Shown here one piece after another: positions 1,622 to 48,124 of a stretch of 48,196 bases of DNA. The stretch's first letter is position 1. The number at the start of each line of letters is the position of its first letter. Under the pieces are notes generated by a model that was not told where the DNA came from, searched no databases, and worked only from the letters and a program-made list of their open reading frames with translations. Made by a program: the position numbers and the translations under genes. The DNA lies in the NCBI GenBank assembly GCA_964495755.1, contig CAZBXU010000001.1, forward strand, positions 14,798 to 62,993, given 5' to 3'. This DNA comes from an uncultured Spirochaetaceae bacterium. GTDB taxonomy: Bacteria > Spirochaetota > Spirochaetia > SZUA-6 > DRHE01.

Positions 1622-4157
1622 GGGCCTAACCCAACGCGCTCAAAAGATATTGACTGTATTGGCCCAGGAAGAGGCAAAGCGATTTCACTCCGACCAGCTT
1701 CTCCCTGAGCATATTATAATTGCATTGCTTAAAGACGGAGAGGGAGTAGCGGTAAAGGCGCTGCAGAAGGCCAAGGTCGATCTTGGAGAGATGCAGTTGG
1801 AGATCGAGCGTTCCCTTCCTCTGGGAAAGGGAGGGTTGATTCTGGGTGACGTCCCGCCATCGAAGCGGGGGAAAAAGATCCTGGAGGATTCCGCTGCGGA
1901 GGCGAGAAACATGGGCCACGAGTATATCGGGACCGAGCATCTGCTTCTCGCGGCCAGCCAGGAGGCGGACAGCCCAACCATGCGTTACTTGAACCGCAAC
2001 AAAGTCACATCGGCCACGTTGAGAGAGTTGATTATCCAAATCAACGGTCTCGGCGACCTGAATCAGCAGGTACAGCACAAGAAGAAGACCCAGTCCATCG
2101 CCAGAAAAGCTACCCCCACACTTGATGAGTTCAGCCGCGACCTGACCAAACTGGCCCGGGAAGACAAACTTGATCCGGTTATCGGTCGGCTGCGGGAGAT
2201 CCAGAGAGTCGTTCAGATCCTGGCCCGGCGCACGAAGAACAATCCGGTTCTGATCGGGGAACCCGGAGTGGGCAAAACGGCGATCGTTGAAGGACTCGCT
2301 CAGCTGATCGTTACCGGCGAGGTCCCCGATGTTCTGGCCGGACGGCGGGTACTCACGCTGGACTTGGCTTCACTGGTTGCCGGAACCAAGTACCGTGGTG
2401 AGTTTGAAGAGCGATTGAAGCGGGTCATGAAGGAGATCGTGGTCGCGAACAACGTCATTCTTTTCATCGACGAGCTGCACACCCTCATCGGTGCCGGCGG
2501 CGCGGAAGGCGCCATTGATGCCTCGAATATGCTTAAGCCCTCTCTGTCCAGAGGTGAGCTCCAGTGTATCGGAGCAACGACCCTCAACGAGTACAGGAAA
2601 TACGTGGAGAAGGATGCCGCTCTGGAGCGAAGGTTCCAACCGATTTATGTAGAAGAACCGAATCTGGAGGAGACGATCGAGATACTGAAGGGCTTGAAAG
2701 AGCATTACGGGAAATTTCACCACGTGACCTACACATACGAAGCGCTGGAGGCTTCCGCCGCCCTATCTCATCGCTACATTTCCGACCGGTTTCTCCCGGA
2801 CAAAGCGATCGACCTGATTGATGAGGCGGGCAGCCGTAGGAAGATAGACACCAGCGTGCGGCCCAAGGAGCTATCTGATATCGAGAACAGGATCGAGAAG
2901 TTGAGCGCAGAGAAGAGCAATCTCGTCGTTCAGCAGGACTATGAGCGGGCGGCGGCACTTCGGGATCGGGTGAAAAATCTGCGTGGACGCATGGATGTGA
3001 TCAAACAGGACTGGGAAGCGAATCTCCGGGTGGAGGAGAATCTGATCGATGTAGAGGACATCCAGACCGTAGTCTCCGAGATAACCGGAATTCCCCTGAA
3101 CCGGATCGCTCAAAGTGAATCCGAAAAGCTGCTGAAGATCGAAGAGGAACTGCACAAGCGAGTGATCGGCCAGGATGCGGCAATCAGCTCGATCGCCGCG
3201 GCGATCCGACGTTCCCGCACGGGTTTGAGCTCGCCAAAACGGCCCTTGGGGTCCTTTATCTTTCTCGGTCCAACCGGTGTAGGGAAGACACTGCTGGCCA
3301 AGACCTTGGCGGCCTTTCTCTTCGGAAATGAAGATGCCCTGGTTCGCATCGACATGTCTGATTTTATGGAGAAGCACAACGTTTCCCGACTGGTCGGTGC
3401 TCCCCCGGGATACATCGGCTACGAGGAGGGCGGTCTTCTGACCGAGAAGATCCGCAGGCGTCCCTACAGCGTCATTTTGCTCGATGAGATCGAAAAGGCC
3501 CATCCGGACGTGTTCAACCTGCTGCTGCAGGTGCTGGAGGAGGGACAGCTTCAGGACAACCTCGGCCATACCGTCAGCTTCCGCAATACTGTTCTGATCA
3601 TGACCTCCAATGCCGGAGCTCGGGAAATCAGCAAGGATTCATCCCTGGGATTTCGCGTGGAAGAGGGGATGATGCGCTACGAAGAGATCCGCACCAGCGC
3701 TTTGAGTGAGATGAAGCGCCTGTTTAACCCGGAGTTTATCAACAGGGTTGATGAGGCCGTCGTCTTCCACAGCCTGAATCGGGAGCATCTGCGGGACATT
3801 CTCGAGTTGATGGTCAGGGAAGTCCAGGAGCAGCTGAACGAGCAGAATATCACCTTGCAGATAACCACAGCGGCTCGAACCTTCCTGATCGAAGAGGGTT
3901 ATGAAGCAAAGTACGGCGCACGCCCGCTGCGCAGGACCTTGCAGAAGTTGGTCGAAGATCCACTCTCCATAGATATATTGAAAGGACGGTTCAAGCAAGG
4001 CAGTACTATTGTGGTCGATCTGAAGGAGGAGAAGATCGCCTTCCGCGCGAAGAGAGAACGTAAGAGTCCGGACAAAGGGAATCAAAGCAAGCGCGGTAAG
4101 GGCGACTCCCCTGGAAAGGATTCTTCCCAGCTGCCCCAGGAGGTGGCGGTACGCTGA
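1614..4157 (+). CDS. clpC: ATP-dependent Clp protease ATP-binding subunit ClpC (class I AAA+ Clp/Hsp100)
   Basis: N-terminal Clp_N repeats. Two Walker A boxes (GEPGVGKTA, GPTGVGKT). A middle UVR-like motif (DYERAAALRDRV). ATG at 1614 (MFKGLTQRAQ) is preceded by GGGAGGA; the longer track ORF from 1581 lies inside mcsB. Confidence 0.95.
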   Translation: MFKGLTQRAQKILTVLAQEEAKRFHSDQLLPEHIIIALLKDGEGVAVKALQKAKVDLGEMQLEIERSLPLGKGGLILGDVPPSKRGKKILEDSAAEARNMGHEYIGTEHLLLAASQEADSPTMRYLNRNKVTSATLRELIIQINGLGDLNQQVQHKKKTQSIARKATPTLDEFSRDLTKLAREDKLDPVIGRLREIQRVVQILARRTKNNPVLIGEPGVGKTAIVEGLAQLIVTGEVPDVLAGRRVLTLDLASLVAGTKYRGEFEERLKRVMKEIVVANNVILFIDELHTLIGAGGAEGAIDASNMLKPSLSRGELQCIGATTLNEYRKYVEKDAALERRFQPIYVEEPNLEETIEILKGLKEHYGKFHHVTYTYEALEASAALSHRYISDRFLPDKAIDLIDEAGSRRKIDTSVRPKELSDIENRIEKLSAEKSNLVVQQDYERAAALRDRVKNLRGRMDVIKQDWEANLRVEENLIDVEDIQTVVSEITGIPLNRIAQSESEKLLKIEEELHKRVIGQDAAISSIAAAIRRSRTGLSSPKRPLGSFIFLGPTGVGKTLLAKTLAAFLFGNEDALVRIDMSDFMEKHNVSRLVGAPPGYIGYEEGGLLTEKIRRRPYSVILLDEIEKAHPDVFNLLLQVLEEGQLQDNLGHTVSFRNTVLIMTSNAGAREISKDSSLGFRVEEGMMRYEEIRTSALSEMKRLFNPEFINRVDEAVVFHSLNREHLRDILELMVREVQEQLNEQNITLQITTAARTFLIEEGYEAKYGARPLRRTLQKLVEDPLSIDILKGRFKQGSTIVVDLKEEKIAFRAKRERKSPDKGNQSKRGKGDSPGKDSSQLPQEVAVR

Positions 4158-42138: not shown

Positions 42139-42169
42139 AGGCCCTTTCTGCCGGATGTAGCAAGGGCCT
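42139..42169 (+). terminator. Possible rpsU terminator hairpin
   Basis: AGGCCCTT-(15-nt loop)-AAGGGCCT followed by TATTTATCC. The loop is long and the U-tract is interrupted. It abuts the stop of the convergent his gene. Confidence 0.3.
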
Positions 42170-43395
42170 TATTTATCCTTGTTCCTTCCCCCAAGCTCGG
42201 CGGTGATCTCCTGCCAGGACAGGCCGTTCTTCACGGCGAGCACGGACAAAAAATAAGTCAGATCGGCGATCTCCCACACCAGGTTTTCGCGGTCTCCCGA
42301 CGACACCACCTCCCTCGCTTCCTCCATTATCTTCGACTTGAGATACGCCGGGTCGGAGAGCAGCCGGGCCGTGTATGACCGCGCAGGCGGATTATCCCGC
42401 CGCCGGGCCAACAGATCGTACAGGGTGTGCAGGTTGAAGCGGCGGGAACCGAAGCAGCTGTACGAGCCGGTGTGGCAGGCCGGCCCGTTCTGTCTGACGG
42501 TAAAGAGAAGCGCGTCCGAATCGCAGTCGGTCCGGCAGGAAACAAGGTCCTGGCTGTTCCCGGAGATCAGCCCTTTTTCCCAAATTTCCCGGCGGGAGCG
42601 GCTGTAGTATATCCCTTTTCCACCCAGCAGGGCTAGACGCAGCGATTCAGGCGAGCTGTAGGCCAGCATCAACACCTGGCCGTTGGTCTCCTGTACGATC
42701 GTGGGTAGAAGGTTGTCCTTAAAAGCAAGAGTGCCGATGAGCGCGGCGGCAAGATCCAGCTTGCCCGTATAGAGGGCCGTACCGACCTGAAGATCTGCGC
42801 CCAGGGCTAGGATTTCGAGGGCATTTTCCGTTCCGCTGATGCCGCCGGATGCGGTAAGGGGATGGGGCAAGCGCTCTTGCAGCTCCGCCACGGCGGCTGC
42901 GTCCAAACCCTGCAGGCTGCCCTCGCGGTCGACGAAGGTACAGAGATAGGAACTGCAGTAGGGAGCCAGTCTCTGCGCCCGTTCGACGACCTTTTCACCG
43001 GTGGAGCGGGACCAGCCCTTGTCCACAACGATTCCCCCAGAATGATCCAGGGCTACCTGTATTTTTGCCGCTGGGAACTGCTCGAGGAACTCCGGCTGCG
43101 CCGCGCTGCCGATGATGATCTTACGCGCCCCGGCACGAAGAAGCTCATCGGCGCGTTCTTTGCTCCTGATCCCGCCGCCCGCTCGCACGTCGGCCACCCG
43201 GCAGAGCTTTTTCACCAGCTCCAGGTTGTTGCCCTTTTCTGTGGCGGCGTCCAGGTCTATGACGGCGACCTCGCCGTAGCGGTTGAACTCCGCCGCCAGC
43301 TCAAGGGGATCTTTGAGGCAGGCGAGCAGTTGCTGCCGGCCGCCGCGAAGCTGGACGGCGCGGCCGTCCAGCAGGTCAATGCTCGGTATGATCAT
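42169..43395 (-). CDS. hisA-hisIE: Fused HisA (ProFAR isomerase) - HisI (PR-AMP cyclohydrolase) - HisE (PR-ATP pyrophosphatase)
   Basis: 408 aa from the ATG at 43395 (ATGA overlap with the hisF stop). The HisA part reads MIIPSIDLLDGRAVQL..VIDLD..AGGGIRS..ASGGIS. The HisI part reads LLPTIVQE..VLMLAYSS..YYSRSRREIWEKG..SGN..DCDSDALL..ACHTGSYSCF. The HisE part reads LYDLLARRR..SYTARLL..KIMEEAREV..LVWEIADLTYFLSVL. No stop or frameshift at the junctions. Confidence 0.85.
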   Translation of the reverse strand: MIIPSIDLLDGRAVQLRGGRQQLLACLKDPLELAAEFNRYGEVAVIDLDAATEKGNNLELVKKLCRVADVRAGGGIRSKERADELLRAGARKIIIGSAAQPEFLEQFPAAKIQVALDHSGGIVVDKGWSRSTGEKVVERAQRLAPYCSSYLCTFVDREGSLQGLDAAAVAELQERLPHPLTASGGISGTENALEILALGADLQVGTALYTGKLDLAAALIGTLAFKDNLLPTIVQETNGQVLMLAYSSPESLRLALLGGKGIYYSRSRREIWEKGLISGNSQDLVSCRTDCDSDALLFTVRQNGPACHTGSYSCFGSRRFNLHTLYDLLARRRDNPPARSYTARLLSDPAYLKSKIMEEAREVVSSGDRENLVWEIADLTYFLSVLAVKNGLSWQEITAELGGRNKDK

Positions 43396-44153
43396 AGTCT
43401 TACCCTTATCCCTCTTTCCTTCAGCTCTCTTTTCAGGGCTTCCACGCTCCACAAGCCATCGTGAAAAATGTTCGCCGCCAGTGCGGCGTCAGCGGAGCCC
43501 AGCTTGAAAATCGCAACAAAGCTTTCCGGGCCGGCGGCCCCGCCGGAGGCAATAACCGGCACGGGGAGGTTTTCCGCGAACAGCTTGGTCAAAGGAACGT
43601 CAAAACCCGCGCGTGTTCCGTCCTGGTCCCAGGAGGTAAGCAGGATTTCCCCGGCTCCCAGTTGCACCGCCTCCCGCGCCCATAAAAAGGCGTCCCGGCC
43701 GGCTTCCCTCCTGCCTCCATGGGTCAGTACCGTCCAACCGGTCCCGTCCTGTGTTCTTTTCGCGTCTATGGCCACCACGCAGCACTGGGAGCCGTGCTCA
43801 CCTGCTATTTCTCCTATTAGAGGCGGTCGGAGCACGGCGGCGGTGTTTACGCTGATCTTGTCCGCCCCCGCCGCAAGCAGGAGGGCGGCCTGCTGCTGGG
43901 AGGATACCCCTCCCCCCACGGTGAAAGGAATCATCAGATTTGAAGCGACCTTTTCCACCACACGGATCAGGGTCCGCCGTCTTTCATGGGTCGCGGAGAT
44001 GTCCAGAAAAACGATCTCGTCGGCCCCCTGGTTTTGATAGATCAAAGCCAGCTCAGCCGGATCGCCGACATCCCGCAGGCCTTGAAAACGCACCCCTTTC
44101 ACCGTTCTGCCCCCGTCCACATCGAGGCAGGGAATGATCCTTTTACAGAGCAT
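43392..44153 (-). CDS. hisF: Imidazole glycerol phosphate synthase cyclase subunit HisF
   Basis: 253 aa. MLCKRIIPCLDVDGGRTVKGVRF..DEIVFLDISAT.. matches HisF. Confidence 0.95.
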   Translation of the reverse strand: MLCKRIIPCLDVDGGRTVKGVRFQGLRDVGDPAELALIYQNQGADEIVFLDISATHERRRTLIRVVEKVASNLMIPFTVGGGVSSQQQAALLLAAGADKISVNTAAVLRPPLIGEIAGEHGSQCCVVAIDAKRTQDGTGWTVLTHGGRREAGRDAFLWAREAVQLGAGEILLTSWDQDGTRAGFDVPLTKLFAENLPVPVIASGGAAGPESFVAIFKLGSADAALAANIFHDGLWSVEALKRELKERGIRVRL

Positions 44154-44727
44154 CGATCCACCTCCTGATCAGTGCCTGACCGAAATCGCCGCTTTTCTCG
44201 GCATGGAACTGATAGGCGGTGATGCCGCCGGTTTTGACGGCGGCACAGAACTCCACCCCGTACTCCGCCGTATAGAGTACCGCTTCCGGGATACCGCATT
44301 CGGCGTAAAAGGAATTGACGAAGTAAGCGTACCCGGCCGGGAAGTTTTTTTCTGCCGCCGGGACGACCCAGTTCCAACCGATCTGGGGCACCTTACCCCA
44401 AACATAGCGCTTGACGCTTCCCGGCAGGACCCCCAGACCGGCCTGCCCGGGTGATTCCTCACTGACACTGAATAGGATCTGCATGCCGATACAGATGCCC
44501 AGGTAGGGTATTCCTTCCATCAATATGTTTTGCAGGGCAGGGACGAAACCCCTGCTTTCCAGGCCCTTCATTACCGCTCCGAACGCGCCGACCCCCGGCA
44601 GAACCAATGGATTATTCCCACTCAGCTCGTCGGCCGAGCTCACAATCCGGAATTCCGCCCCCAGCCGCGTCAGGCAGCGGGCTACACTTCCCATGTTGCC
44701 GCCGCCGTATTGAATCAGCTCAATCAC
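44143..44727 (-). CDS. hisH: Imidazole glycerol phosphate synthase glutamine amidotransferase subunit HisH
   Basis: 194 aa. GGGNMGSV, LPGVGAFG, and the catalytic Cys context YLGICIGMQ. Confidence 0.9.
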   Translation of the reverse strand: MIELIQYGGGNMGSVARCLTRLGAEFRIVSSADELSGNNPLVLPGVGAFGAVMKGLESRGFVPALQNILMEGIPYLGICIGMQILFSVSEESPGQAGLGVLPGSVKRYVWGKVPQIGWNWVVPAAEKNFPAGYAYFVNSFYAECGIPEAVLYTAEYGVEFCAAVKTGGITAYQFHAEKSGDFGQALIRRWIDAL

Positions 44728-45343
44728 CGATCTTCCCTTTGCTGCTCATCACGGTCGCCTCGGAAAGAGGCCGCGTGGCTGCATACAGGGCTCGGGCGAA
44801 GGCCTTGAACACCGCTTCGACGGCGTGATGGTCGTTGTCCCGGTAGTGAAGTTTTATGTGAATCGTGGCCGTCAGAGTGTCGGCCAGGCCTTTGAAAAAG
44901 TCGCGCCACAGCCGGGGATCAACTCCACCGATCGGAGCACTCCCGGTGCCCGCCTTCCATACCAGGTTGGGCCGGCCGCAGAGATCCACCGCCGCCTGAG
45001 CCAGACTGCCGTCCATCGGGAAGATAAAAAAGCCGCAGCGGACGATACTGCTGAAATCCCCGAGCGCCGAATGAAGTGCCTTGCCCAGTACGATGCCGCA
45101 ATCCTCGATCAGGTGGTGGGGGTCGACATCGATATCCCCGCTTGCCGTCACCTCCAGCCCCATCCAGCCGTGGCAGGCCAGAACACTGAGCATGTGATTG
45201 AGAAAAGGAAGAGGCGATTCGATCCTGGCCGCGCCCGGTTCGTCTAAACGCAGCTTCATCGAAATCGATGTTTCCGCTGTTTCTCTGGTCAGGTCCGCCT
45301 CTCTGTTTAGAGCCTTGTTCCCCGAAGCGTCTTTAGCAATCAT
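44720..45343 (-). CDS. hisB: Imidazoleglycerol-phosphate dehydratase HisB (monofunctional)
   Basis: 207 aa. RETAETSISMKL, FLNHMLSVLACHG, DPHHLIEDCGIVLG, DNDHHAVEAVFKA. Confidence 0.9.
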   Translation of the reverse strand: MIAKDASGNKALNREADLTRETAETSISMKLRLDEPGAARIESPLPFLNHMLSVLACHGWMGLEVTASGDIDVDPHHLIEDCGIVLGKALHSALGDFSSIVRCGFFIFPMDGSLAQAAVDLCGRPNLVWKAGTGSAPIGGVDPRLWRDFFKGLADTLTATIHIKLHYRDNDHHAVEAVFKAFARALYAATRPLSEATVMSSKGKIGD

Positions 45344-45344
45344 A

Positions 45345-46244
45345 TTAAAATATCTCTCCTTCGCTCATGCCGGCAGGGGCGCCGACGATTTTTTCCAGCC
45401 GGTACTCCAGGATGTCCACAGCTCCCGCCGCTATGAGCCTGGGGATGAGCCGCGGCACCTCCTGAATGGGTACTGCGGCCTTGACGGCAAAACCGCTGTT
45501 GTTATGCAGGGGGGAAACCGTGGGAGCGCGCATGCAGGGCAGAATCGCGATGACGCCCTCGAAGCGATCCGAAGGTACATTCATCTCCAAAAGCACCCGA
45601 CTGTCCGCCATGAGGACCCCCCTCATCAGGGTGACCATCTCCTTAAGGCGGTTGCGCTTCCACGGGTCCTGCAGGGAAGTTGGGTTCCCGATAAAACGGG
45701 TGGTAGAGCACATGAGGCGCTCCACGATAACCAGCTGATTGTGCCACAATGTCGCCCCCGTGGCTGTATTGTCGATGATGATATCTGCATCTTCCGGCGG
45801 CATGGCTTCGGTGGCGCCGTGAGTACGCAGAAACACGGCCTCGAGCCCATTTTTTTCAATAAAGCTCTTGGCTAGGTTCTGGTATTCAGAAGCCACCACA
45901 ACAGGCTGTCTCCGCCAAGCCTGCTTGGCTGCCAGTTTCGCGGGAACCGCGACCACCACTTCCACCGGGTCGAATCCCAGGTCGGCCAGTTCTACCACGT
46001 CGGCTCCCTGCTCCACAATACAGTCGTAGCCGGTGAAGCCGCAGTCATGCCGCCCCAAATTTACCAGCTTGGGAATATTTTGGGGTTTCAGCATCTTGGC
46101 AGTGATAGCGGGATCGCTGCATTCAGGGCGATAGGAGCGGTCGCTCAGTATAAACTCGATGCCGATGCGGGCCAGGATGCGGAGAACCTTGTCCTGGATG
46201 CGGCCTTTCGGCAGGATCATATTCAGCTTTCTTTCTCGGGGCAC
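45345..46244 (-). CDS. hisG: ATP phosphoribosyltransferase HisG, long form with a C-terminal regulatory domain
   Basis: ..KLNMILPKGRIQDKVL.. N-terminus. C-terminal LEMNVP..PTVSPL..VDILEYRLEKIV regulatory block. The preferred start is GTG at 46244, 5 nt after GGAGGAGG; an alternative ATG lies at 46220. The track start at 46277 abuts the leader terminator U-tract and has no SD. Confidence 0.9.
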   Translation of the reverse strand: MPRERKLNMILPKGRIQDKVLRILARIGIEFILSDRSYRPECSDPAITAKMLKPQNIPKLVNLGRHDCGFTGYDCIVEQGADVVELADLGFDPVEVVVAVPAKLAAKQAWRRQPVVVASEYQNLAKSFIEKNGLEAVFLRTHGATEAMPPEDADIIIDNTATGATLWHNQLVIVERLMCSTTRFIGNPTSLQDPWKRNRLKEMVTLMRGVLMADSRVLLEMNVPSDRFEGVIAILPCMRAPTVSPLHNNSGFAVKAAVPIQEVPRLIPRLIAAGAVDILEYRLEKIVGAPAGMSEGEIF

Positions 46245-46277
46245 GTTATCCTCCTCCGGCACCGCGGCAGAAAGCAT

Positions 46278-46304
46278 AAAAAAAAGCCCGCTGCCGCGGG
46301 CTTT
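46278..46304 (-). terminator. Intrinsic terminator within the his operon 5' leader (attenuator terminator)
   Basis: The minus strand reads AAAGCCCGC-GGCA-GCGGGCTTT followed by TTTTT (8 consecutive T in total). It sits between the His-rich leader ORF and the hisG SD. Confidence 0.7.
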
Positions 46305-46330
46305 GATCTTTCTAGTAGCGATAGAACGCG

Positions 46331-46414
46331 CTAAAGTGCACGCCGACCTCCACCCGCATGTGTGGTATCGTGGGGGAGATGATGGTGATGCACAGAAACG
46401 CGCTTGTCCGTCAT
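46331..46414 (-). CDS. his operon leader peptide (hisL-like), 27 codons: MTDKRVSVHHHHLPHDTTHAGGGRRAL
   Basis: The minus strand reads GAGAGGA-N9-ATG ACG GAC AAG CGC GTT TCT GTG CAT CAC CAT CAT CTC CCC CAC GAT ACC ACA CAT GCG GGT GGA GGT CGG CGT GCA CTT TAG. It has four consecutive His codons and six in total. It lies between a promoter-like element and the leader terminator, upstream of hisG. Confidence 0.65.
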   Translation of the reverse strand: MTDKRVSVHHHHLPHDTTHAGGGRRAL

Positions 46415-46448
46415 AAAATTCTGTCCTCTCGATTCATTCTAAGCAGCT

Positions 46449-46478
46449 AATATAGGTTATTTGGAGATTAGCTGTCAA
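46449..46478 (-). promoter_or_regulatory. Sigma-70-like promoter candidate of the his operon
   Basis: The minus strand reads TTGACA-N18-TATATT. The -10 element ends 34 nt before the leader-peptide ATG. Confidence 0.4.
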
Positions 46479-46870
46479 GTCCTCGCGTCGCCTTACTAAA
46501 TAACTACCTGAAAGGGCGCCGTCGCCCTGGGCCAGTTTCTGGGCGTTGCCAGCAACTATGTGTTCGCAATCCACAGAGCACCGGAAAGATGAGGCTGACT
46601 GTAGATTGACGGAAGTCAGGTCGTATATCGGAGATCTCCACCACATTCTTCATTTCAAGCCTCCTATCGCATAATATGTGTACAGTTGTTCTGTGTTAAG
46701 TCAAGCTTCGTGAAGATCGTGTGGCGACGATTTTACCTAATGGGCTGACTCTTTGCGAAGGTATTATGGCGCATCTGTAGGTTTCCGGCAAGAATGAGAT
46801 CCCCGGTGAATGTTTTCCTCGCCCACCACCCAGTGGGGGACATACGAGAAGCTGCAGCTATCAATGAGTA

Positions 46871-46910: not shown

Positions 46911-47189
46911 ATGATAAGGTTGTTCCGGCACAAAGGATTGAGCGAGTACTATGAAACCGGAAACAAAAGAGGCATCAATCCGGACCATGCCTCCAAATTG
47001 GCGCGCATTATAGATAGGCTAGACGCATCTGTTCGGCCTTCTGATATGAACTTGCCGGGCTACCAGCTTCACCAATTATCAGGGCAAGAGAAGGGAACAT
47101 GGTCTGTTCGAGTGAGCGGAAACTGGCGTGTTACATTTAAGTTTGAAGGTGAAGATGCCACAGATGTTGATTATTTGGACTATCACTGA
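46911..47189 (+). CDS. higB: Type II toxin HigB (RelE/ParE superfamily 'killer protein')
   Basis: 92 aa. MIRLFRHKGLSEYYETG..GI..LARIIDRLDAS..PSDMNLPGYQLHQLSG..KGTWSVRVSGNWRVTFKFEGEDATDVDYLDYH is the typical HigB pattern. The toxin-first gene order fits HigBA. Confidence 0.85.
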   Translation: MIRLFRHKGLSEYYETGNKRGINPDHASKLARIIDRLDASVRPSDMNLPGYQLHQLSGQEKGTWSVRVSGNWRVTFKFEGEDATDVDYLDYH

Positions 47190-47207
47190 ATATCGGAGGG
47201 AAAGATT

Positions 47208-47501
47208 ATGATAATGAGGAAGCCTATCCATCCCGGAGAAGTCCTCTTAGAGGATGTGATCAAGCCCCTTGGGCTTACCGTGACTGAAGCCGCAAAAAAC
47301 CTTGGTGTTTCTCGGAAGACACTTTCTGAGCTGGTTAATCAGAAAGCAGCACTCAGCCCCGAAATGGCTTTAAGGATTGCAAAGGCAACAAATACGAGCC
47401 CGGAAAGTTGGTTGAACATGCAGACGAAATTGGATCTATGGAATGCTTTACAACACGAACCTGAAAACGTCTCGGAGTTTTCTCATCAACTGGTAAGATG
47501 A
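47208..47501 (+). CDS. higA: Type II antitoxin HigA (XRE-family HTH)
   Basis: 97 aa. GGAGGG SD. PIHPGEVLLEDVIKPLGLTVTEAAKNLGVSRKTLSELVNQKAALSPEMALRIAKATNTSPESWLNMQ. Confidence 0.85.
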   Translation: MIMRKPIHPGEVLLEDVIKPLGLTVTEAAKNLGVSRKTLSELVNQKAALSPEMALRIAKATNTSPESWLNMQTKLDLWNALQHEPENVSEFSHQLVR

Positions 47502-47616: not shown

Positions 47617-47889
47617 GTGGATGTCGTTTGGGATCCTGAAAAGGCGAGGTTGAATCTAAAGAAACACGGTGTCCGATTTTCGGATGCTGAAATGGTGCTA
47701 TTCGATCCCAACGCGCTCACCAGGGAGGATATGGAAATCGAGGGCGAGCAACATTTTGTGACCGTTGGAATGGATGCCGTCGGTCATATCCTCGTGGTCG
47801 TTTATGCGTATCGCGGTGAAGATATCCGATTGATATCAGTTCGGTCCGCGACTAAAAGAGAGAGAATGCAATATGAAGAAGGAATATGA
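47617..47889 (+). CDS. brnT: Type II toxin BrnT (DUF497 ribonuclease family)
   Basis: 90 aa. VVWDPEKARLNLKKHGVRFSDAEMVLFDP..ILVVVYAYRGEDIRLISVRSATKRER. Confidence 0.85.
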   Translation: MDVVWDPEKARLNLKKHGVRFSDAEMVLFDPNALTREDMEIEGEQHFVTVGMDAVGHILVVVYAYRGEDIRLISVRSATKRERMQYEEGI

Positions 47890-48124
47890 TTTCTCCAAAG
47901 CCAAGCGTGAAGCGGTAGTTCCTCAAAAGGGGAAGACAAGAATCAGCATCTATATCGACAACGATGTTCTGGAGGAGTTCCGCCAGCGGTCGGATGAGTC
48001 TGGCAGAGGGTATCAAACGATGATGAATGAAGCTCTTCGAGAGTATTTAGGTAAATCACGTCGTCCTGTAGATGAAACTACTCTGCGCCGAGTTCTTCGT
48101 GAAGAACTAAAGACTGTAGGATAA
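47873..48124 (+). CDS. brnA: Type II antitoxin BrnA (RHH/CopG-like)
   Basis: 83 aa, overlapping brnT by 17 nt. ..GKTRISIYIDNDVLEEFRQRSDESGRGYQTMMNEALREYL is the typical BrnA C-terminal RHH block. Confidence 0.8.
   Translation: MKKEYDFSKAKREAVVPQKGKTRISIYIDNDVLEEFRQRSDESGRGYQTMMNEALREYLGKSRRPVDETTLRRVLREELKTVG

Follow-up and report, generated by a model that had tools for sequence, protein, structure and literature searches.

Upstream of hisG in a 48,196-nucleotide (nt) stretch of DNA from an uncultured Spirochaetaceae bacterium (GenBank assembly GCA_964495755.1, contig CAZBXU010000001.1, positions 14,798 to 62,993; hereafter the window), we find a short leader that encodes a histidine-rich peptide and ends in an intrinsic terminator. 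We interpret this element as a classical ribosome-mediated leader-peptide transcription attenuator, which makes expression of the hisGBHF-A/IE operon depend on charged tRNA-His, and we place the probability of this interpretation at roughly 85%. The features of a classical attenuator are a translatable leader after a promoter-like pair, tandem His codons within it and a terminator before the first structural gene, here hisG, and all of these are present. Mutually exclusive 1:2, 2:3 and 3:4 pairings are also found in the predicted folds of the window and of seven relatives. The mechanism is an ordinary, textbook one. What sets the element apart is the unusual host lineage, and it is missed by current annotation.

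The leader and its predicted folds

All coordinates of the leader and the his operon refer to the minus strand of the window (Table 1). The promoter-like pair is the top-scoring site of its kind within the 4.2 kb scanned. The peptide encoded by the leader open reading frame (ORF) contains six His in total, with one each at codons 15 and 19 beyond the run of four, and no other short ORF with a His run occurs on either strand of the 48 kb. An earlier reading, made from the DNA letters without database searches (the sequence-only reading), had described the promoter-like pair, the Shine-Dalgarno (SD) sequence, the 27-codon ORF, the four-His run and the six His, and each was found on the minus strand where it had been placed. 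The leader peptides that we tested, including that of the window, are not among the called proteins in a collection of ~15 billion proteins.

The terminator, AAAGCCCGC-GGCA-GCGGGCTTT, occupies 46304..46283 and its run of eight U reaches 46278. The stem has 9 bp, 6 of them GC pairs, and is closed by a 4-nt loop. A terminator with eight U after the leader stop had also been proposed from the sequence, with a spacing of about 30 nt; the hairpin is present, and it begins 25 nt past the stop codon. The same reading had placed the terminator immediately before the SD and start of hisG, which proved incorrect. The probable GTG start of hisG (46244) lies 39 nt from the end of the terminator stem and the ATG of the MILPKGR reading frame (46220) 63 nt from it, and a conserved segment, region 5, is found in between. 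The hisG SD sequence, GGAGGAGG, is located at 46257..46250.

Table 1 Parts of the leader and genes of the his operon in the window, all on the minus strand.
Feature	Position	Basis or detail
Sigma-70-type promoter-like pair, TTGACA-N18-TATATT	46449..46478 (TTGACA 46478..46473, TATATT 46454..46449)	11/12 consensus positions
Leader SD, GAGAGGA	46424..46430	Read from sequence; 9 nt before ATG
Leader ORF, 27 codons + TAG, MTDKRVSVHHHHLPHDTTHAGGGRRAL	46331..46414 (ATG 46414, TAG 46333..46331)	Sequence and translation
Regulatory codons CAT CAC CAT CAT, four consecutive His	46379..46390	Sequence
Region 1, 5' strand of 1:2 hairpin, codons 4-15 including His run and CUCCCCC	46370..46403	Minimum-free-energy and centroid folds
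Region 2, 3' strand of 1:2 hairpin, including TAG stop	46326..46357	Folds
Region 3, terminator 5' arm, AAAGCCCGC	46296..46304	Pairs with region 2 in predicted anti-terminator
Region 4, terminator 3' arm GCGGGC, then eight U (UUUUUUUU)	46278..46291	Terminator scan
Region 5, CUGCCGCGG	46262..46270	Exact complement of CCGCGGCAG
hisG, 299 aa, long form with C-terminal regulatory domain	45345..46257 (including SD)	Pfam PF01634 + PF08029
hisB	44720..45343	Pfam IGPD
hisH	44143..44727	Pfam GATase
hisF	43392..44153	Pfam His_biosynth
hisA-hisI-hisE fusion, last operon gene	42169..43452	Pfam His_biosynth + PRA-CH + PRA-PH

The minimum-free-energy fold of the leader consists of the 1:2 hairpin and the terminator, with an energy of -55.7 kcal/mol (z = -2.2). 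In the 1:2 hairpin, codons 4-15 pair with a stretch that extends from codon 20 to a few bases past the stop codon and includes GGGUGGAG. The pairing of CUCCCCC with GGGUGGAG, which the sequence-only reading had pointed out by eye, belongs to this fold. Region 1 falls within the footprint of a ribosome stalled on the His codons. Region 2 starts with GCGGGU (46357..46352), the putative anti-terminator strand, and the complementarity of this segment to GCCCGC (46301..46296), likewise noted earlier, forms the closing helix of a predicted multibranch anti-terminator.

For a kinetic view of the leader, nascent RNA ending with region 3 was folded either as it is or with 30 nt masked as the footprint of a ribosome on chosen codons. 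Without a ribosome, region 2 was held in the 1:2 hairpin and the terminator arm was free, with a pairing sum between regions 2 and 3 of 0.04. With the mask on His codons 3 or 4, this sum reached 5.8-5.95 of 6 pairs, and with the mask on His codons 1 or 2 it was lower, at 4.4 and 2.8. The earlier proposal that a stalled ribosome frees an anti-terminator is therefore borne out in constrained, predicted folds of the nascent RNA. The anti-terminator domain has a predicted energy of -22.4 kcal/mol, versus -16.0 kcal/mol for the terminator hairpin alone. For a ribosome at the stop codon, the local upper 1:2 hairpin is predicted at -10.6 kcal/mol, versus -7.6 kcal/mol for the bare 6-bp 2:3 helix. As the TAG is part of region 2, a ribosome positioned there would remove, by its footprint, the inner helices of the anti-terminator.

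From these parts and folds, we infer that stalling, anti-termination and termination take place in the cell as follows. Transcription would start from the promoter at 46478..46449 and a ribosome would translate the 27-codon leader. When histidine is plentiful, the ribosome would reach the TAG inside region 2 and disrupt the inner anti-terminator helices. The upper 1:2 hairpin (CUCCCCC:GGGUGGAG) would re-form behind the ribosome and leave region 3 free, the GCCCGC-GGCA-GCGGGC hairpin with its U8 tract would form, and RNA polymerase would terminate before hisG. If the leader is not translated, the full 1:2 hairpin would form and termination would likewise follow. When His-tRNA is scarce, the ribosome would stall on CAU CAC CAU CAU and cover region 1, and the free GCGGGU of region 2 would pair with GCCCGC once region 3 has been made. 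The terminator would then be blocked and the polymerase would read into hisG.

Leaders upstream of related hisG genes

To get a broader picture of the distribution of such leaders, we scanned for HisG in one genome per species and in metagenome contigs, which gave 99 loci with sufficient upstream sequence. A short ORF with a His run, starting 180-320 nt upstream of hisG, was found in 78/99 of these related loci, while the same criterion selected 5 of 2109 control windows from the same loci (0.2%). The surveyed loci carry the labels Gemmatimonadota, Planctomycetota (Phycisphaerae, Isosphaeraceae), Zixibacteria, Rhodothermales, Fermentibacterales and Alphaproteobacteria; Myxococcota-labelled and Melainabacteria-labelled loci among the 99 were without a His-run ORF. 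The leader stop is followed, at a distance of 21-38 nt, by a GC-rich hairpin and a U-rich tail in nearly all loci that have a leader. The sequence-only reading had made its proposal depend on conservation of the His-run ORF and the stems in relatives, and this conservation is observed. The ~50 Gemmatimonadota-type leaders are highly uniform (M-x-RTSSHRHHHGHSVHGG). Across the His codons of 28 distinct leaders of this type, the minor bases total 11 at codon position 3 and 1 each at positions 1 and 2, and this excess at position 3 is the pattern of a translated sequence.

We compared region 2 with the terminator arm by a swap test between lineages, which replaced a test of the duplex against shuffled sequences. 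Across 22 lineages, region 2 of a leader pairs better with the terminator arm of the same leader than with arms from other lineages (permutation p = 0.002). This supports co-adaptation of regions 2 and 3 across lineages, as far as can be judged from sequence comparison. Covariation of the stems, which the sequence-only reading had suggested looking for, cannot be counted within the closest group, as discussed below.

The closest genome record (L001) is a metagenome-assembled genome (MAG) labelled uncultured Spirochaetaceae bacterium, with a HisG 99% identical to that of the window, and two metagenome contigs (L036 and L037) encode a HisG ~100% identical to it. The L001 leader differs from the window leader by scattered single bases only, and the promoter-like pair is identical. 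Homology between the window and L001 starts at 46496, 18 nt upstream of the -35 element, and the sequence farther upstream is unrelated. This edge is expected if the promoter marks the boundary of a conserved regulatory unit. The L037 peptide has two changes (D16G, H19L) and retains HHHH.

The closest non-identical HisG proteins share 63-68% identity with the window HisG. The leader peptides found before their genes are MSLNSSRRHHHHAHHRGAGDVRPAVR (L100), MLNISGTQHHHHHHHHTNGIGAGGESWR (L101), MFSNSSLHHLHHHHTNGIGAGCAKLERIA (L102), MSFLTSCRHHHHAHHRGAGVVRPAVR (L103), (V)NIFVNSLHQHHHHHAHISAGDGAARS (L104), MSIFAQVHPHHSSLPHHHGVSSDRKSGPRTRRG (L105) and MDYRTGIHHHEMHHRHAVA (L107). Together with L001, L036 and L037, these seven loci retain the His run, as had been expected of relatives; their peptides diverge apart from this run and a Gly-codon-rich tail. 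The His codons of the relatives vary between CAU and CAC, and this wobble variation fits a coding constraint. The exception is L106 (63% HisG identity), in which a terminator-like hairpin (GAAGCCCGCCGACCGGCGGGTTTTTTG) lies upstream of hisG at about 820 and no His-run ORF was found upstream of hisG by the criterion used. L106 may have lost the leader, or may use another kind of leader. Purine-rich GAGG or AAGG motifs occupy the SD position in the relatives. Promoter-like pairs matching 8-9 of 12 consensus positions lie upstream of the leaders in L101, L102, L105 and L107, and are not clear in L100, L103 and L104.

All eight leaders of the closest group (window, L001, L037 and L100-L104) have GCGGG within the ORF, always in Gly-Ala-Gly-type codons, and the terminator core CCCGCG-NNA-GCGGG is invariant among them. 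The in-ORF GCGGG copies the 3' arm of the terminator, exactly as expected of an anti-terminator strand. L105 and L107 have a different terminator sequence, and by eye their region 2 differs along with it. Constrained folding predicted three-state behavior in L037, L101, L102, L103, L104, L105 and L107 despite their sequence differences. A local covariance model was built from L100, L101, L102, L103 and L104 only, with the window's own lineage excluded. On both strands of the 48 kb, its sole significant match is 46278..46419 (33.2 bits, E ~1e-7 by a rough calibration). The alignment is poor in the 5' half, and most of the score comes from the terminator and the central region.

Two further observations concern leaders in related loci. 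In an alphaproteobacterial-labelled MAG (L035, about 2680..2850), the His leader contains a tandem expansion of a 12-nt unit (CAUCAUCAUGUG), so that the peptide contains seven tandem copies of HHHV and 28 of its 56 aa are His; only one 12-nt unit is present in sister contigs (compare L030 and L031). L101 has another classical leader besides the his leader and divergent from it, located before trpE-trpG-trpD (2470..2620, minus strand of the locus). It comprises a TTGACA promoter, an AGGAGA SD, the ORF MNLVHNNFWWWTCYIASREGNLR with three Trp codons (WWW) and the terminator AAAGCCGTGGAG-ACAG-CCTCCACGGCTTTTTTG. L102 likewise has a WWW leader and a terminator before trpE, read by eye. Judging from these sequences, at least two pathways appear to be under leader-peptide attenuation in the L101/L102 lineage.

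Weighing the evidence, and a conserved segment before hisG

Several results weigh against the attenuator interpretation. In the full-length leader at equilibrium, the terminator fold wins even with region 1 masked. Thus, in the comparison of terminator and anti-terminator conformers suggested in the sequence-only reading, the anti-terminator forms in the masked nascent RNA and the terminator wins at full length, which means that anti-termination would depend on kinetic order, with region 2 capturing region 3 first. Such a dependence on kinetic order also holds for the trp attenuator of E. coli. With a mask on the stop codon and sterics ignored, the unconstrained fold still has the 2:3 helix. 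The predicted minimum-free-energy fold of L100 with a stalled ribosome is not the anti-terminator. In the closest group, no covariation can be counted, because the CCCGCG-NNA-GCGGG core is invariant. The 6-bp 2:3 core of the window, taken alone, is not better than dinucleotide shuffles (z -1.2, p 0.14), and the duplex-versus-shuffle test was non-significant for most single lineages, and for most GC-rich leaders too. Finally, a generic measure of terminator-arm pairing, applied to 73 leaders with and without the ribosome mask, did not separate the states (means 0.55 vs 0.60); we dropped this measure as too crude.

The segment between the terminator and hisG has a conserved complementarity of its own. 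Region 5 starts seven nt past the U tract and abuts the hisG SD, and the sequence that it complements, CCGCGGCAG, runs from the end of the terminator 5' arm through the loop to the first base of the 3' arm. In the window, the energy of this duplex is -19.4 kcal/mol, versus -11.1 kcal/mol for shuffles (p 0.004). The complementarity recurs at +14 to +16 nt after the stem in seven sequences (window, L037 and L100-L104; p = 0.002-0.014 vs shuffles), and changes in the loop are matched by changes in region 5. The loop GGCA occurs with CUGCCGCGG (window and L037), GACA with CUGUCGCGG (L100 and L103), GAAA with UUUCGCGG (L101) and GGAA with UUUUCGCGG (L102, with one G-U pair); the fit of region 5 to the arm and loop is poorer in L104. 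In the window, L100 and L103, the predicted energy of a fold with the region 5 helix differs from that of the terminator fold by no more than 1-3 kcal/mol.

Since region 5 is transcribed after the termination decision, it cannot affect termination. Possible roles are refolding of the read-through mRNA, hisG translation or processing. When region 5 pairs with the arm and loop, the ribosome-binding site is predicted to become more accessible in L101 and L102 (~0.9, up from ~0.5). We considered exposure of the hisG ribosome-binding site as the role of region 5 and rejected it, as the predicted effect holds only in L101 and L102 and is absent in the window, L100 and L103. A broader proposal, which we put forward tentatively and regard as rather doubtful in its entirety, is that the window element belongs to a large uncatalogued set of His attenuators before long-form hisG, in records labelled Spirochaetaceae, Gemmatimonadota, Planctomycetota, Zixibacteria, Rhodothermales, Fermentibacterales and Alphaproteobacteria, and that in the window's own group region 5 opens the terminator hairpin in read-through transcripts as a second control step, for example on hisG translation or mRNA processing. 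To our knowledge, the enterobacterial attenuator has no such post-termination control step. With its covariation, region 5 adds something concrete and testable to the classical attenuator scheme.

Region 5 also bears on the first of three alternatives to attenuation, in which the leader senses His-tRNA with a different output, namely hisG translation through refolding of the read-through mRNA, possibly by region 5, or Rho or polarity with the hairpin as a constitutive partial terminator. The conservation of region 5, its covariation with the terminator loop, its position against the hisG SD and the accessibility gain predicted in L101 and L102 are all consistent with such an output, as is the short 2:3 core that is no better than shuffles. 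However, the 9-bp GC-rich stem and its U8 make a canonical intrinsic terminator, the copy of its 3' arm is retained within the ORF in all eight leaders of the closest group, the swap test favors co-adaptation of regions 2 and 3, and the accessibility effect is absent in the window, L100 and L103. We consider this alternative unlikely.

More improbable still is that the ORF product is itself a functional His-rich micropeptide, for example one that binds metal, and that the ORF is co-transcribed with hisG or placed before it, with the hairpin just ending a small transcript. The ORF has a good SD and start codon, and His-rich peptides can bind Ni or Zn. Against this, only the His run and the Gly-codon-rich tail are conserved and the remaining peptide varies between lineages, with peptides as short as 18 aa among the surveyed loci. 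The ORF is also tied to hisG in many phyla, at the frequencies given above for leaders and control windows, and a WWW leader of comparable design precedes trpE in relatives. That a short ORF, a His run and a hairpin occur together by chance in an intergenic region, with the hairpin terminating something else or nothing, has a negligible probability: the number of terminator-like sites in the 4.2 kb scanned shows no enrichment over shuffles (5 vs 4.4 expected) and the leader fold has a z-score of only -2.2, but no minus-strand gene is apparent upstream of the leader, where there are two ORFs without a Pfam match and plus-strand toxin-antitoxin genes as neighbors, the His-run ORF is the sole one in 48 kb, the element is conserved at 63-68% HisG identity and across phyla, and the model built from relatives matches the site.

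Known leaders, the his operon and its surroundings

The Rfam His_leader model (RF00514), whose gathering score is 49, reaches 16.7 bits at the window leader (E = 3.4 when 601 nt were searched). Sub-threshold matches to Leu_leader (24.2 bits) and Trp_leader (22.7 bits) occur at the same place, and all three stem largely from the terminator, the Leu_leader and Trp_leader matches also from the overall layout. Membership in these three families was rejected, as the scores are below gathering. No Rfam family reaches its gathering threshold in the window, nor in 20 related leader loci. The T-box model (RF00230) has no match at gathering in the window, nor at E <= 10 in 46100..46700. Trp_leader, Leu_leader, Thr_leader and Phe_leader follow the same three-state logic with other regulatory codons and operons, and none reaches gathering here.

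The his attenuator of E. coli and Salmonella, whose mechanism is summarized in PMC3896937, shares with the window element a promoter-proximal His-run ORF, alternative hairpins and an intrinsic terminator before hisG. The output of hisL is read-through when charged tRNA-His is scarce, and we propose the same output for the window element on the basis of the modeled folds. The two differ in several respects. The enterobacterial leader peptide has seven consecutive His (PMC3896937), whereas the window peptide of 27 aa has four consecutive His and two more. Neither sequence nor structure homology to hisL is detectable, as judged by the His_leader score of 16.7 against 49 bits. The stop codon of the window leader is placed deep within region 2, region 5 is an additional covarying segment, and the operon, hisGBHF-A/IE, is without hisD and hisC. 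The host is a spirochaete-labelled MAG and not an enterobacterium. These differences agree with the suggestion in the sequence-only reading that the element is independent of enterobacterial hisL and unannotated, its peptide not being a called protein.

Leader-peptide systems were known only in Proteobacteria and Actinobacteria at the time of the survey of Naville and Gautheret in 2010 (PMC2965389), which predicted His leaders before hisS paralogues and hisZ in Firmicutes (bacilli) by comparative genomics and argued that they are independent in origin from the proteobacterial ones. Like the window element, these Firmicutes leaders combine an ORF with a run of His codons and a premature terminator outside the Proteobacteria; they precede hisS paralogues or hisZ and not hisG, and belong to another phylum, and the likeness is one of description. 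His-specific T-box leaders of Firmicutes also report tRNA-His charging at his genes through a choice between terminator and anti-terminator. T-boxes bind uncharged tRNA directly and need no translation, whereas the window has a translatable His-run ORF. A T-box-like element has been proposed for Corynebacterium hisD (PMC3896937), and a study of Actinobacteria by Seliverstov et al. detected no RNA element upstream of his genes (PMC1262725).

Ribosome-mediated his attenuation thus appears to reach well beyond the groups documented in the 2010 survey (Proteobacteria, Actinobacteria and, with it, Firmicutes; PMC2965389). There is an annotation gap, in that the Rfam models score below threshold and the peptides are too short for gene calling. 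As current resources miss such leaders, building a new model family could bring annotation of his regulation to many uncultured lineages. The element itself will be no surprise to specialists; what merits follow-up is how widely similar leaders are spread across phyla, together with region 5. Vitreschak et al. are said to have predicted, in 2004, his attenuators in Bacillus cereus and Clostridium difficile, and reportedly also attenuators of other operons in Thermotogales and Bacteroidetes/Chlorobi. Later Russian-language surveys by Lopatovskaya, Seliverstov and Lyubetsky reportedly may cover more phyla. The novelty of the leaders described here relative to the literature is therefore provisional.

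The genes of the operon after hisG span 42169..45343 and abut or overlap on one strand. A database relative of HisG (P0001, 299 aa, 98% identical to the window HisG) agrees with the GTG start. The hisA-hisI-hisE fusion probably starts at ATG 43395, which shares the sequence ATGA with the hisF stop codon. The operon includes neither hisD nor hisC. Directly after hisG, the window has hisB, unlike the closest relatives L100, L101, L102, L105 and L107, in which a gene of ~558 aa comes next. This gene combines an aminotransferase domain (Aminotran_1_2, HisC-like) with an HAD phosphatase domain, and is possibly a hisC-hisN fusion.

Directly upstream of the his promoter, and divergent from it, lie two type II toxin-antitoxin pairs, a higB/higA-like pair and brnT/brnA, at window positions 46911..47501 and 47617..48124 on the plus strand. 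Because the L001 sequence is unrelated from 18 nt upstream of the -35 element, this toxin-antitoxin block varies between strains.

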